From positions 1-53,157 of the IMG/VR virus record IMGVR_UViG_3300024433_000009: a DNA stretch of 53,157 nt, one strand, 5' to 3'. The notes beneath the pieces are model-generated. The model worked only from the letters and a program-made list of their open reading frames with translations. It did not search any database and was not told the origin of the DNA. The position numbers and the translations under genes are program-made. How positions within the stretch are numbered: position 1 is the first letter of the stretch; each line of letters begins with the position of its first letter. Below are positions 1-53,157 of the stretch, one piece after another. This DNA is from a virus (lineage: Duplodnaviria; Caudoviricetes).

Positions 1-143
1 AGGCTATTGATTTTTTTTCTCTTAGGTGAGAACTGCGAAAGCGGGTTCAGTTTAAATAAGTCTTTTTGTCTATTTTGAGATATGCCAGAAATCCGGGGAT
101 TATACAGCATTATTAGTCTTAAGGATCGACTTTCTGCACCATT
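1..143. repeat. Terminal overlap, copy 1 (circular assembly)
   Basis: 1-143 matches 53014-53157 except for one extra A in the T-run of the right copy. Confidence 0.95.
51..63 (+). promoter_or_regulatory. Putative late promoter motif TTTAAATAAGTCT
   Basis: AAGTCT starts 24 nt before ATG 82; the same spacing recurs before seven other late-region genes. Confidence 0.7.
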
Positions 144-4433: not shown

Positions 4434-4614
4434 TAAAAAGTTTAATTGATTAAACTATTATTTAATTATCGAAAAGAAAATGTGCAAAGAAAAGATATTG
4501 GAGGAACTCAAGAATATAGACGAAGATAGTGACTATTTAGCGGGTAAAATAATGGGATTGGTTATTGCTGCGGGGTTGTGTGGATGCACACAGGAAGAGA
4601 TAAATAAAAACGTT

Positions 4615-5466
4615 CTATAATAATTGATTTCCCCAACTCATCCACTCTATTCGTTCCTTACGTGCAAACAGTTCTAAATATTTGCCATTCGGATACATCT
4701 TCTCGATAATCTCATAAAAGATGACGGGTTTTTCGCTATGTCGCTTTCTCGGGGCAAATATTGTAGAAGATGATCTGCTATCAGGGGGAGGAGGTTTGAT
4801 ATTGCCCCGTGTGGCAATAAATAAATGCTCATGTTGTGCCCGTGTATAATGTCCCGTGCCTATTCGATCTTTTATCCAGATGAGTTCGGATTTTATTGTA
4901 AATCCCCACGCTTCTATTACTTTCAATCCTTTTGTGACTTTTGAAAACGGTACCCATAAAAACAAAACTGCATTTTCGGCGGCGGGTATTTTCAGCGCGC
5001 ATATCTGCTCCACGGTCATTGTGGGGTAATGATTCTCAATCGCTCTGCTATGTGAAATCGTATAATCCTCATCCCAAGGCGGGTCAGCATAGACAACATT
5101 ATATTCCTCCTCATTCAAGCGATTAAACGAAGGTGTATGCGGGATCCGACATTCCGTCAAGATGCGCTTCACATCAGTTACATTTACATTTAGTCGTTGC
5201 CTTCCCCTTGTCTTTTCCGTCTTCTTTTGTTTTTGACGTTTTTCATTTAAGATAAGTATCTTACCTGTCGCTTTCCATCTTGTCTCGTCATCTCGTTCAT
5301 TGATAAGTGCATATAAGACGTTTTCGGAAGCTATCTCGCCTTTTAATGGCTCAATAAACTTCAGATAGTTATTCATTCTATCTAAGAACTTATTAATCTT
5401 CTTTGCTGTTTTAGGATATCTTTGTTCGTATCCCTTCCACTTTTCGTTAAAATCCTTGCAGTTCAT
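4615..5466 (-). CDS. MT-A70-family N6-adenine methyltransferase
   Basis: YADPPW, HYPTM, LFLWV, WGF, HSEKP, LELFAR and WGNQ motifs; start taken at MNCKDF, downstream of the structured leader. Confidence 0.92.
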   Translation of the reverse strand: MNCKDFNEKWKGYEQRYPKTAKKINKFLDRMNNYLKFIEPLKGEIASENVLYALINERDDETRWKATGKILILNEKRQKQKKTEKTRGRQRLNVNVTDVKRILTECRIPHTPSFNRLNEEEYNVVYADPPWDEDYTISHSRAIENHYPTMTVEQICALKIPAAENAVLFLWVPFSKVTKGLKVIEAWGFTIKSELIWIKDRIGTGHYTRAQHEHLFIATRGNIKPPPPDSRSSSTIFAPRKRHSEKPVIFYEIIEKMYPNGKYLELFARKERIEWMSWGNQLL

Positions 5467-5470
5467 TTCT

Positions 5471-5511
5471 GTCTCCCCGATAGACGGAGGGATGCGATCG
5501 GGGCGCATCCC
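5471..5511 (-). ncRNA. Putative kissing-loop RNA leader, copy A
   Basis: Minus strand GGGATGCG-ccccgat-CGCATCCC-tcc-GTCT-atcgggg-AGAC; the two loops are complementary; starts 30 nt after the first base of TTTATATA. Confidence 0.6.
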
Positions 5512-5573
5512 AAATATTTTTTTGTTTTTAGTCTATATAAAGTTTAAGTCAAAATAAAAAAGAGGCGATATAA

Positions 5574-6107
5574 ATGAACATAGTTGATAAGATCAAAAAA
5601 CTGGTGCACGAAAAAATCGGTGAGCTAAACACGTTCGATATTGGGAAGATAACAGACGCAAACAATCTGAGGCTACGATACAACGTCAAATTAAAGCATA
5701 AAATCGGAGGCAATGAGATAGAACTATTTAACGTGCCGATAGCGCCTTTTTGGTTCAATGCGGGCATGATTTTAATATCGCTCGACATAGACGATATAGT
5801 AGGCATCGCATTTTCAAACTACGAGCTCAAGCAGCAACTGAAAAACAAGGATATAACGGACGTGAACGAAGTTTTAAAATTCGACATGAATAATGCTATA
5901 ATAGTTTCTGGTGCGTTCACAGATGTCGATGAGATACCGAGCGAATTTGAAAATGGTGCAATACTGATAAAACACAAAGATGGCAACTACATAAAAATAA
6001 CAAGTGATGATATAATAACAGAACATAAATCCGGTGCATATATAAAGATAAACGTAAGTGGCGAAATAGCGATACACGGCTCAAAAGTGGACATAACGAA
6101 ACTATGA
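5574..6107 (+). CDS. Baseplate central spike (gpV/Gp138-like)
   Basis: N-terminal OB-like region (LFNVPIAP...DIVGIAF) and C-terminal beta-repeats (HKDGNYIKI, HKSGAYIKI). Confidence 0.8.
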   Translation: MNIVDKIKKLVHEKIGELNTFDIGKITDANNLRLRYNVKLKHKIGGNEIELFNVPIAPFWFNAGMILISLDIDDIVGIAFSNYELKQQLKNKDITDVNEVLKFDMNNAIIVSGAFTDVDEIPSEFENGAILIKHKDGNYIKITSDDIITEHKSGAYIKINVSGEIAIHGSKVDITKL

Positions 6108-6415
6108 GCGAACTAATAGCAGTAGAGAATGATACCGATACGTGTGGTGATTGCCACGAACCGCCGACTGGAGGCGGCACATATCCAATAACGCCGATAA
6201 CCTTGCAGGACTTTGTATTCGTTGATTCAAAACTTGTCGTGATAGATAACGAGGAGTTCTCAGCACATTGTCTTGCGAATACGAAGGCGACTACCCCACT
6301 ATTGCATATCGGGGGCGTAGCAGTATGCCGAAATGGGGATGTGTCTATATCTCAGGGATGTCACACGTTTAGTGGGATAGCAGTAGCGCAGCAGGACTTT
6401 GTCTTTTCTGAATGA
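6104..6415 (+). CDS. PAAR-like spike-tip protein
   Basis: 103 aa after the spike gene; Cys/His ligands and LHIGGVAVCRNGD motif. Confidence 0.65.
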   Translation: MSELIAVENDTDTCGDCHEPPTGGGTYPITPITLQDFVFVDSKLVVIDNEEFSAHCLANTKATTPLLHIGGVAVCRNGDVSISQGCHTFSGIAVAQQDFVFSE

Positions 6416-6448
6416 AGCTTTATATATCTAGAAACCAAACAATTAATA

Positions 6449-6488
6449 GGGATGTGCCACAACCACATCCCCGCCTGTTGTGGAGGCG
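6449..6488 (+). ncRNA. Putative kissing-loop RNA leader, copy B
   Basis: GGGATGTG-ccacaac-CACATCCC-CGCCT-gttgtgg-AGGCG; loops are complementary; starts 30 nt after the first base of TTTATATA (6419). Confidence 0.6.
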
Positions 6489-6561
6489 AAGATAAAAGCC
6501 ATGATGAAAAACAAGCTAATTGGATGGTATATTTAATAAGTCAATCTCTAATTTTATTGTT

Positions 6562-6915
6562 ATGGGGGATTTTGAATTTCAAAATGGGGACCTTATAATA
6601 AACGACCTGCATGAGATAACGACCGTAACGACAATCGCAGAGGTGAAACAAGATTTGGAGCACCGACTTTTATGCGTTAAAGGCTCCGACCCGTTCCATC
6701 TCGAATACGGCGTGCACTGGTTGAAAATCAAAAGAACGACATTCAATAAGGTTCTGATAGAGCACGAGATACGCAAAGCACTGAAGTCACATGATAGTGT
6801 GAAATCGATTGATAGCGTGGATATATCCGCGCCAGATTCAGAGCGTAAGATAACTATAACGGTACATATCACACTCAAATCAGAAGAAATCGTGACAGTA
6901 GAGGTGACAATATGA
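6562..6915 (+). CDS. Baseplate wedge / sheath initiator (gp25/GPW-like)
   Basis: QDLEHRL...KGSDPFHLEYG motif; precedes baseplate J; start set by the late motif 24 nt upstream. Confidence 0.8.
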   Translation: MGDFEFQNGDLIINDLHEITTVTTIAEVKQDLEHRLLCVKGSDPFHLEYGVHWLKIKRTTFNKVLIEHEIRKALKSHDSVKSIDSVDISAPDSERKITITVHITLKSEEIVTVEVTI

Positions 6916-24542: not shown

Positions 24543-24650
24543 GCACGTCAAAGAAGAAAGGAGTGGAAGGGAATGATAAACGCACAAAGAGAGGATATAT
24601 TAAGCAAGAGCCTTTTTATACCTCTTTTTCTTTTTTCCCTTTATTTGGTT

Positions 24651-24723
24651 GGGGGTGTAGCTCAGCCAGAAGAGCGGCAGTCTCCAGAACCGCAGGTCGT
24701 GAGTGCAAGTCTCACCTCCCCCA
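24651..24723 (+). tRNA. trnW: tRNA-Trp (CCA), intronless, with stem mismatches
   Basis: GGGGGTG-TA-GCTC/GAGC D arm, GCAGT-CTCCAGA-ACCGC anticodon arm, GTGAG-TGCAAGT-CTCAC T arm, CTCCCCC-A; TTTTTATA box upstream at 24613. Confidence 0.8.
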
Positions 24724-24782
24724 TAATCTAATACTTATAACCCAAACTACTAACAACTTTTCATTTTTCTTTAAGTAACCAC

Positions 24783-52834: not shown

Positions 52835-53023
52835 ATGGAACCACAAAAAGTGCAGTTAGACAGGACAGAAGAAGGAAATCAAACGGCAAATCTCATTGCC
52901 TTCACATTGATCTTTTTTGGCATCTTGTTGTGCATCACCCTGATTGGGTTGCCACTTGGGATACCTATGATTTTGTTTGGGTGGTACATAATGAGAAACG
53001 TAAAGAAGAGGAGAGGCTATTGA
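52835..53023 (+). CDS. Small membrane protein
   Basis: GGAGGTGA RBS; GILLCITLIGLPLGIPMILFG helical hairpin. Confidence 0.7.
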   Translation: MEPQKVQLDRTEEGNQTANLIAFTLIFFGILLCITLIGLPLGIPMILFGWYIMRNVKKRRGY

Positions 53024-53157
53024 TTTTTTTATCTCTTAGGTGAGAACTGCGAAAGCGGGTTCAGTTTAAATAAGTCTTTTTGTCTATTTTGAGATATGCC
53101 AGAAATCCGGGGATTATACAGCATTATTAGTCTTAAGGATCGACTTTCTGCACCATT
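53014..53157. repeat. Terminal overlap, copy 2
   Basis: Repeats 1-143, including the start of the tape measure gene. Confidence 0.95.

Follow-up and report, generated by a model that had tools for sequence, protein, structure and literature searches.

The DNA analysed here, which we call the window, is the whole of the IMG/VR virus record IMGVR_UViG_3300024433_000009 (Duplodnaviria; Caudoviricetes), a single contig of 53,157 bp with 42% G+C. It carries two short elements, copy A on the minus strand (5511-5471) and copy B on the plus strand (6449-6488), and each of them can be drawn as two hairpins whose loops are complementary to one another. What are these elements, and what would they do to the messages that begin with them? 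An initial annotation, made from the letters of the window, described them as kissing-loop RNAs which belong to no recognised family, lie at the 5' ends of transcripts and control translation or stability. We found that A and B belong to a real, covarying leader RNA, which is confined neither to this virus nor to archaea. Judging from sequence, we consider it probable that they are members of a widespread, uncatalogued class of promoter-proximal leaders that throttles translation by hiding the Shine-Dalgarno sequence.

Twin hairpins with complementary loops

Read from the window, with the loops in parentheses, copy A is GGGAUGCG(CCCCGAU)CGCAUCCC-UCC-GUCU(AUCGGGG)AGAC and copy B is GGGAUGUG(CCACAAC)CACAUCCC-CGCCU(GUUGUGG)AGGCG. 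Both were seen in the sequence and again in a structural scan, and their letters and coordinates agreed exactly with the initial annotation. Each consists of an 8-bp hairpin with a 7-nt loop followed by a 4-5-bp hairpin, again with a 7-nt loop. In copy A, stem 1 pairs 5511-5504 with 5496-5489 around loop 1 (5497-5503), the linker UCC follows at 5488-5486, and stem 2 pairs 5485-5482 with 5474-5471 around loop 2 (5475-5481). Copy B has no linker: its stem 1 (6449-6456 with 6464-6471, loop 1 at 6457-6463) runs directly into stem 2 (6472-6476 with 6484-6488, loop 2 at 6477-6483). In both copies the two loops are exact reverse complements of each other, as had been claimed. The covariation noticed earlier is also there. 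The loops of A and B differ at three of the seven positions, all three compensated, stem 1 contains one compensated pair (C-G to U-A), and so does stem 2.

The second hairpin overlaps a Shine-Dalgarno sequence in both copies, as the initial annotation had noted. In copy A this is GGAG (5476-5473, minus strand): its GG closes loop 2, its AG is the first part of the 3' strand of stem 2, and the ATG at 5466 lies 6 nt after GGAG and 4 nt after stem 2. In copy B a Shine-Dalgarno-like GGAGG (6482-6486) spans the junction of loop 2 and stem 2, and the first ATG, at 6501, comes 14 nt 3' of GGAGG and 12 nt after stem 2. In its minimum-energy fold, B forms both hairpins (z = -3.1 to -3.4). When the window was scanned for the twin-hairpin architecture, A and B were the only copies found, even with one loop mismatch allowed; the leftover was a TA repeat and one weak match. 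An invertible segment between the inverted copies A and B was considered and ruled out, since their cores differ.

A covariance model made from A and B alone (R1), as the initial annotation had proposed, could be built but was too sequence-specific and returned nothing new. A second model (R2), which was seeded with four members including A and encodes only the stem 1 (S1) and stem 2 (S2) hairpins, did find further members. It gave 14 matches at E<=0.018 in 364 kb. Copy A, as a seed, scored 56.7 bits, and copy B, which was not a seed, scored 29.1 bits (E=2e-4). Nine of the ten non-seed matches showed 7/7 Watson-Crick pairing between the two loops in fixed alignment columns. In the tenth, L340:4520, stem 2 borrows one loop base, and the 7/7 pairing was read directly.

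For the pair counts we took all 21 R2 matches at E<=5, dropped none, and wrote the loop-loop helix (K) as a pseudoknot. Paired cells made up 97.2% of 326, compared with 74.0 +/- 1.5% in shuffles and 46-52% when the partner columns were slid. A change on both sides was seen in 15 of the 19 pairs. Covarying pairs numbered 8/8 in stem 1, 2/4 in stem 2 and 5/7 in K; stems 1 and 2 guided the alignment, and their counts lean to the model, while K lies outside it. The two invariant pairs of K are CC:GG. None of 500 shuffles reached any of the five measures. G-U pairs are present in all three helices (8 cells), which fits a sense-strand RNA rather than DNA. The calculated energies were -11 to -16 kcal/mol for S1, -0.2 to -7.5 kcal/mol for S2 and -5.4 to -11.2 kcal/mol for the K duplex.

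Altogether we count 17 distinct elements of the same build, namely A, B and 15 in uncultured bacterial phages, and these carry 14 different loop-1 sequences. The phages G001 and G005 have three copies each, G006 has four, G003 two and G004 one, and the remaining copies are L308:3275 and L311:3310. Six virus genomes (352 kb, both strands) were scanned with the pattern stem, 7-nt loop, stem, short linker, stem, complementary loop, stem. This gave 15 sense-strand elements, against none in 20 dinucleotide-shuffled sets. In about 1.9 Mb of unrelated loci from pattern scans, there were two doubtful GC-rich matches.

The members share a common shape. Stem 1 has 7-10 bp, a G-rich 5' strand, a closing G-C pair and a 7-nt loop, which opens with CC in 16 of the 17 members and with CU in one. 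The second hairpin lies 0-10 nt downstream of the first and has a stem of 3-6 bp. Linkers measure 3 nt in A, 0 nt in B and no more than 6 nt in all but two of the 17 members. A variant copy, G006:60246, has 6-nt loops with one mismatch. The leader at G005:3641-3700 is broken: it keeps stem 1 and loop 1 whole, but only 4 nt of loop 2 match before the sequence runs into a tRNA gene, and it is a relic of a lost cassette.

The stem-1 pattern was also searched on its own. It matched 28 loci in IMG/VR viral contigs, about the chance expectation, and elsewhere at least 118 metagenome stretches and at least 120 genome-contig stretches. Among the matches listed there was one true relative, the locus L056/L061/L111/L113. 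L056 (= L061) has the full architecture with a new loop pair, a TTGACA-17-TAGAGT promoter before it and a gene for a 192-aa HNH-like protein after it. Through homologues of this protein we reached L305 (72% identity) and L309 (61%), whose leaders differ from that of L056 in stem-1 and loop sequences and have the same geometry. Three other loci with 7/7 loop matches (L074, L187 and L240) were rejected because of incorrect spacing, a stem mismatch or surroundings that resemble a terminator, and such matches are at chance level.

The initial annotation had not recognised the element as a known family, and no match to it was found in Rfam 15. The whole window at the gathering threshold returned tRNA only, positions 5350-6650 at E<=10 returned two unrelated weak matches located elsewhere, and eight member loci at E<=1 returned nothing over the elements. 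In full-text literature on phage endonuclease leaders with kissing or loop-loop pairing, pseudoknots and Shine-Dalgarno sequences, we did not find a description of a twin-hairpin leader. A collection of more than 10,000 candidate viral RNAs has no passage on the motif in its main text, and its supplementary tables may contain it (PMC10690425). The leader is a compact (40-55 nt), highly covarying device that is found neither in Rfam nor, to judge from the full-text searches, in the literature, and many tailed viruses seem to use it for the control of selfish or accessory genes.

Promoters and downstream genes

Both window copies stand behind the same archaeal TATA-like box, TTTATATA, at 5534-5541 (minus strand) for A and at 6419-6426 (plus strand) for B. 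The spacing described earlier is correct, with the first T of the box 30 nt ahead of the first G of each leader. The window contains 22 TTTAWATA boxes, and TTTATATA alone occurs 16 times where 4.1 are expected. An ATG begins 30-33 nt after the first T in 9 of the 22 boxes (about 1.7 expected), or in 8 of 21 when the terminal duplicate is counted once. Examples of the boxes are found at 51, 10599, 35742, 44833 and 30179 (minus), and several stand behind a GAAAGC-like upstream element. Genes with an ATG 30-33 nt after a TATA-like box lack a Shine-Dalgarno sequence, and internal genes have GGAGG. In archaea the TATA box typically lies about 27 nt upstream of leaderless starts. The TTTAWATA/GAAAGC arrangement is, as far as its sequence tells, a methanogen-style B recognition element (BRE)/TATA promoter pattern with leaderless starts.

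We saw no sigma-70-like site adjoining A or B. In the bacterial members, sigma-70-type boxes (TTGACA-17-TAGAGT/TAAGAT or TGnTATACT) end 5-17 nt before stem 1. Together with the TATA spacing in the window, this places the leader close to its promoter in both settings. Five of the bacterial leaders (approximate sites G001:18060, G006:71490, G003:2620, G005:8440 and G005:3620) also have a 12-nt near-palindrome, TTGTAGCTACAA with variants such as TTGTACGTACAA, 4-8 nt upstream. It may be a phage-specific promoter or operator.

Next we looked at the genes that follow the leaders. Among the bacterial-phage members, 11 of the 12 scanned downstream proteins match GIY-YIG/NUMOD3, HNH or Endonuclease VII families, and the twelfth, G005:8505, matches weak zinc-ribbon models only. 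The scan covered all but three, which are G001:11099 (EndoVII-like by eye) and two proteins cut by locus ends. Nuclease cargo is typical of the leader family and does not define it: in the window, A leads a DNA methyltransferase gene and B has no proper cargo. The gene behind A (4615-5466, minus strand, ATG at 5466) encodes an MT-A70 enzyme (Pfam E=1.8e-28; PHROG DNA methyltransferase) and is the sole minus-strand gene within the baseplate module. A further ATG lies upstream in the same frame at 5508, within stem 1 of A. Contigs of runs X1 and X2 compared with the window gave DNA variants only. One contig of run X2 joins 4446 to 5556 and omits the whole promoter-leader-MT-A70 cassette, with flanking matches of only 20-23 nt. 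This junction hints weakly at an insertion of the cassette, and we did not count it as evidence.

Copy B lies between a small cysteine-rich open reading frame (ORF; 6104-6415) and a gp25-like gene (6562-6915). The ATG at 6501 opens an ORF of only 11 codons (MMKNKLIGWYI and a stop; 6501-6536, plus strand). A 48-codon ORF (6452-6598, plus strand) is opened by an ATG within stem 1 of B; neither a homologue nor a family was found for it, and it is unlikely to be a gene. B may have been orphaned by the loss of its gene, or it may lead a micro-ORF. A stretch of about 50 nt that begins at 6482 or 6488 and ends at 6536 (GGAGG, spacer and 11-codon ORF) recurs in other X1/X2 contigs with unrelated flanks on both sides, and it may be a small conserved mobile module or a micro-gene. 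The surroundings of B also vary. A minor variant contig of the source run (depth about 9, compared with about 44) swaps the 694 nt of 5938-6633 for 1078 other letters, and the swapped stretch spans the C-terminus of the spike, the small cysteine-rich ORF, leader B and the start of gp25.

Proposed concealment of the ribosome-binding site

The position of GGAG within the leader suggests how it may act. GGAG is invariant in the nine-member alignment, and at the loop 2/stem 2 junction of all 17 members it is found in 15, with AGGAG in one (L305) and GGGG in one (G005:8462). Its two Gs are the final bases of loop 2 and stand opposite the CC that opens loop 1, and its AG opens the 3' strand of stem 2 opposite the CU that closes the 5' strand. 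The CC of loop 1 and the CU of stem 2 therefore form a split anti-Shine-Dalgarno sequence (CU/CC) that pairs with GGAG. An ATG follows about 1-10 nt after stem 2 in 16 of the 17 members, and B is the exception with its 12 nt.

We propose that the transcript would begin with the stable G-rich hairpin S1, with a 7-nt loop of the form CCNNNNN, and continue with the weak hairpin S2. With the ribosome-binding site base-paired by K, by S2 or by both, the 30S subunit would rarely bind and translation of the downstream gene would be low. The 5'-terminal hairpin S1 probably also protects the end of the mRNA. The leader would move with its own promoter ahead of accessory or selfish genes, and such a throttle would suit nucleases and a DNA-modifying enzyme, which would be harmful in excess. 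The initial suggestion of a structured leader or small RNA that controls translation or stability is supported by the 15 additional elements before start codons, the three covarying helices and the conserved GGAG. We infer the repression of translation, and which of the helices coexist, from these sequence features.

Several points weigh against this interpretation. A coaxial stack of S1 (8 bp), K (7 bp) and S2 (4-6 bp) would be about 20 bp or 55 A long by geometric estimate, and we estimate that a linker of at least 7 nt would be needed to hold all three together in one molecule. As 15 of the 17 members have linkers of 0-6 nt, S1, K and S2 should not all be intact in the same molecule. A kiss that buries the whole Shine-Dalgarno sequence in cis would consequently fail for both A and B. 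The predicted fold of A is no better than shuffles (z = -1.0 to -1.3), and a small competing helix, UCCG:CGGG, displaces its stem 2. Transcription of A and B, with a start at the first G, is predicted from the spacing of the TATA boxes. A search for RNA runs that contain the DNA of the window found none. B lacks a convincing gene, and the next real gene (6562) has a promoter-like motif of its own. Finally, none of 64 loci of MT-A70 homologues from IMG/VR (177 kb) has such a leader. A leader linked to MT-A70 was ruled out on this count, which makes A a one-off combination and the leader a portable module rather than a methyltransferase feature.

The kissing loops of the initial annotation therefore survive in part. 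The pairing between the loops covaries, but geometry makes it implausible that one molecule kisses in cis and keeps both stems. Two arrangements would resolve the conflict. In the first, a single molecule would alternate between two hairpins and an H-type pseudoknot (S1 and K), each state hiding half of GGAG; in the pseudoknot state the 5-15 nt preceding loop 2 would have to cross the groove of S1. In the second, the loops would pair between molecules, so that all three helices form and GGAG is fully buried. Between the two we lean fairly clearly toward alternation in cis.

Intermolecular kissing, with loop 1 of one mRNA bound to loop 2 of another in antiparallel dimers or head-to-tail chains, is unlikely in our opinion. 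Repression would then rise with the concentration of the message and act as a copy-number brake. It would be the sole arrangement that lets the three covarying helices coexist with 0-6-nt linkers, if our geometry is right. The leader also has known counterparts in this respect. ColE1 RNA I/RNA II and TAR-TAR* are intermolecular kissing complexes with fully complementary 7-nt loops, and the leader resembles them in its two hairpins, in 7-nt loops paired over their full length and in the strictly kept loop size. It differs from these intermolecular antisense pairs in that both of its loops are on one mRNA, 0-10 nt apart, and in that its loop pairing takes in half of the ribosome-binding site. 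Leaders residing in the same genome have different loop pairs (12/12 leaders in four multi-copy genomes), and cross-pairing of A with B would be poor, with 1-3 mismatches of 7. However, chance alone would make the loops of one genome distinct in about a quarter of cases according to a rough estimate, and two of the G006 leaders differ by a single loop base. The mRNA levels in infected cells may be too low for such pairing, and the cis pseudoknot that alternates with the two hairpins accounts for the same covariation.

A bolder form of the same idea is an intermolecular code, in which identical messages would kiss as the mRNA accumulates and so shut off a risky accessory gene, each leader would have a private loop pair that prevents cross-talk, and one portable device would serve bacterial and archaeal viruses. 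We consider it decidedly unlikely; if true, the leader would be one of the rare classes of cis-regulatory RNA that extend over two domains of life. Such a device would target only the Shine-Dalgarno/anti-Shine-Dalgarno step, which is shared, and would for that reason work in bacterial and archaeal viruses alike. Since the three covarying helices are unable to coexist in cis, the choice between cis and trans is directly testable. The strict 7-nt loop pairs are also a natural library of orthogonal kissing pairs, which could serve as tunable translation throttles.

It is improbable that the leader is a regulated switch between the two-hairpin form and the S1 and K pseudoknot, triggered by a protein such as the encoded enzyme or a viral factor, by temperature or by transcription from an additional start inside the leader. 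Such a switch would release translation at a fixed moment, like the late-promoter bypass of T4 I-TevI. The geometry does imply two mutually exclusive states in cis, K and S2 are of comparable stability in several members, and T4 provides a precedent for timed release via truncated late transcripts (PMC2988022). On the other hand, the linker and loops have no conserved unpaired nucleotides and nothing like the core of a ligand pocket, and the leaders, 40-55 nt long, showed no promoter motif inside them. The downstream proteins come from unrelated families, contrary to autoregulation by a common protein.

Could the leader instead be mainly an element of mRNA stability or processing, a 5' hairpin that blocks 5'-end-dependent decay or provides a nuclease entry, with its overlap of the ribosome-binding site secondary? 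S1 is strong (-11 to -16 kcal/mol) and lies within about 10 nt of the transcript start predicted from promoter spacing, both in the window and in the bacterial members. Such an element is very unlikely to be the main explanation, as it leaves the 7/7 loop complementarity and the placement of GGAG at the loop 2/S2 junction unexplained.

A DNA-level or coding feature (a palindromic operator, GGGATGYG-N7-CRCATCCC, an opposite-strand terminator, a recombination site or the start of a leaderless ORF) is scarcely credible: a terminator-like scan flags stem 1 on the opposite strand in both copies, a T-rich run follows A on the plus strand, ATG 5508 is in frame with MT-A70, ATG 6452 opens 48 codons, and ATGs 30-33 nt past TATA-like boxes are common in the window genome, but the stem-1 sequence varies across the family with its pairing kept, the G-U pairs favour a sense RNA, the stem-1 ATG is missing from most members and opens just 3 codons in L056, the 48-codon ORF is without relatives, and protein binding would leave the loop complementarity unexplained.

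Throttling by concealment is the reading that we prefer, and it has a precedent. RNA structures that hide the ribosome-binding site are a documented control of T-even homing-endonuclease genes, with hairpins described for I-TevI, I-TevII, I-TevIII, segB and Aeh1 mobE, and in the T4 cases the Shine-Dalgarno sequence lies in one very stable hairpin while a late promoter inside it gives truncated, translatable transcripts (PMC2988022). These hairpins resemble our leader in the short structured leader, in the accessory or selfish gene that comes next and in the paired Shine-Dalgarno sequence, and the cargo of the bacterial members likewise consists of free-standing nucleases. There are differences too. 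In our leader a weak hairpin (S2) and a 7-bp loop-loop helix each take part of the Shine-Dalgarno sequence, and a 5'-terminal hairpin lies upstream; the promoter lies outside the structure and none was seen inside the leaders; and there is no sequence similarity.

The leaders of E. coli rpsO (S15) and T4 gene 32 are operators bound by the encoded protein, and they are gene-specific. Our leader is like them in that the loop of the first hairpin can pair at the ribosome-binding site and in its alternative hairpin and pseudoknot states. It is unlike them in that the same fold precedes unrelated proteins and in that loop 1 has the loop of another hairpin as its partner. The viral RNA collection cited above refers to the gene 32 pseudoknot (PMC10690425). 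Hiding the ribosome-binding site is a known principle, to which the leader adds a new structural variant.

The virus and its likely host

The first 143 nt of the window (1-143) are repeated by the last 143 (53015-53157) at 134 of 143 positions, with the differences near the starting T run. The repeat indicates that the record is a complete genome, circular or terminally redundant, with a length of about 53.0 kb. It encodes the genes of a contractile tail (tape measure, Dit-like protein, hub, gp25-like protein and baseplate J), a T4-type large terminase, a Mu-F-like protein, an HK97/encapsulin-fold capsid protein, a reverse transcriptase and 7-deazaguanine genes. The best INPHARED matches of the large terminase are the Methanobacterium phages psiM2 and psiM100 (49%), with Gordonia phages close behind (45-46%). 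The terminase is the only gene that psiM2 shares with the window virus, and psiM2 has no copy of the leader.

The virus also carries a tRNA-Trp (CCA) at 24650-24724 with G1-C72, the A73 discriminator and G37, a U6-U67 mismatch and the unusual T-loop UGCAAGU. We take G1-C72, A73 and G37 to be the archaeal/eukaryal identity set and not the bacterial one. The promoter spacing, the psiM2-like terminase and this tRNA-Trp suggest that the host is quite probably archaeal. If that is true, the leader would be among the few cis-regulatory RNA architectures common to bacterial and archaeal viruses. To the family the window adds a non-nuclease cargo (the DNA methyltransferase), an orphan copy and a probably archaeal virus.

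Other proteins of the virus have few relatives. Neither the major capsid protein (MCP) nor the portal matched anything in INPHARED, and the window virus had no match there by blastn. The MCP was weakly matched in one of 401 genomes of the phylum of G008, which is uninformative for the host. No relatives of the spike protein were found in IMG/VR viral contigs, and those of baseplate J show 29-42% identity only. The gp25-like protein has ten relatives at 66-85% identity, and none of its family was found in the viral-contig or genome-contig collections.

Some further observations concern the bacterial phages. G005 (83 kb) has a large tRNA array. A sub-threshold match to bacterial RNase P RNA (84.9 bits, gathering threshold 100) lies at L332:1205-1464 of G005, directly upstream of one leader. 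Finally, the unrelated bacterial contigs at L187:2567, L167:2501 and L077:2778 have a common motif, a GGGATGCGCCGCTGCCGCATCCC hairpin and then ...GGTCAGGGAGGAG..., which stands outside the twin-hairpin family and may be another conserved RNA.

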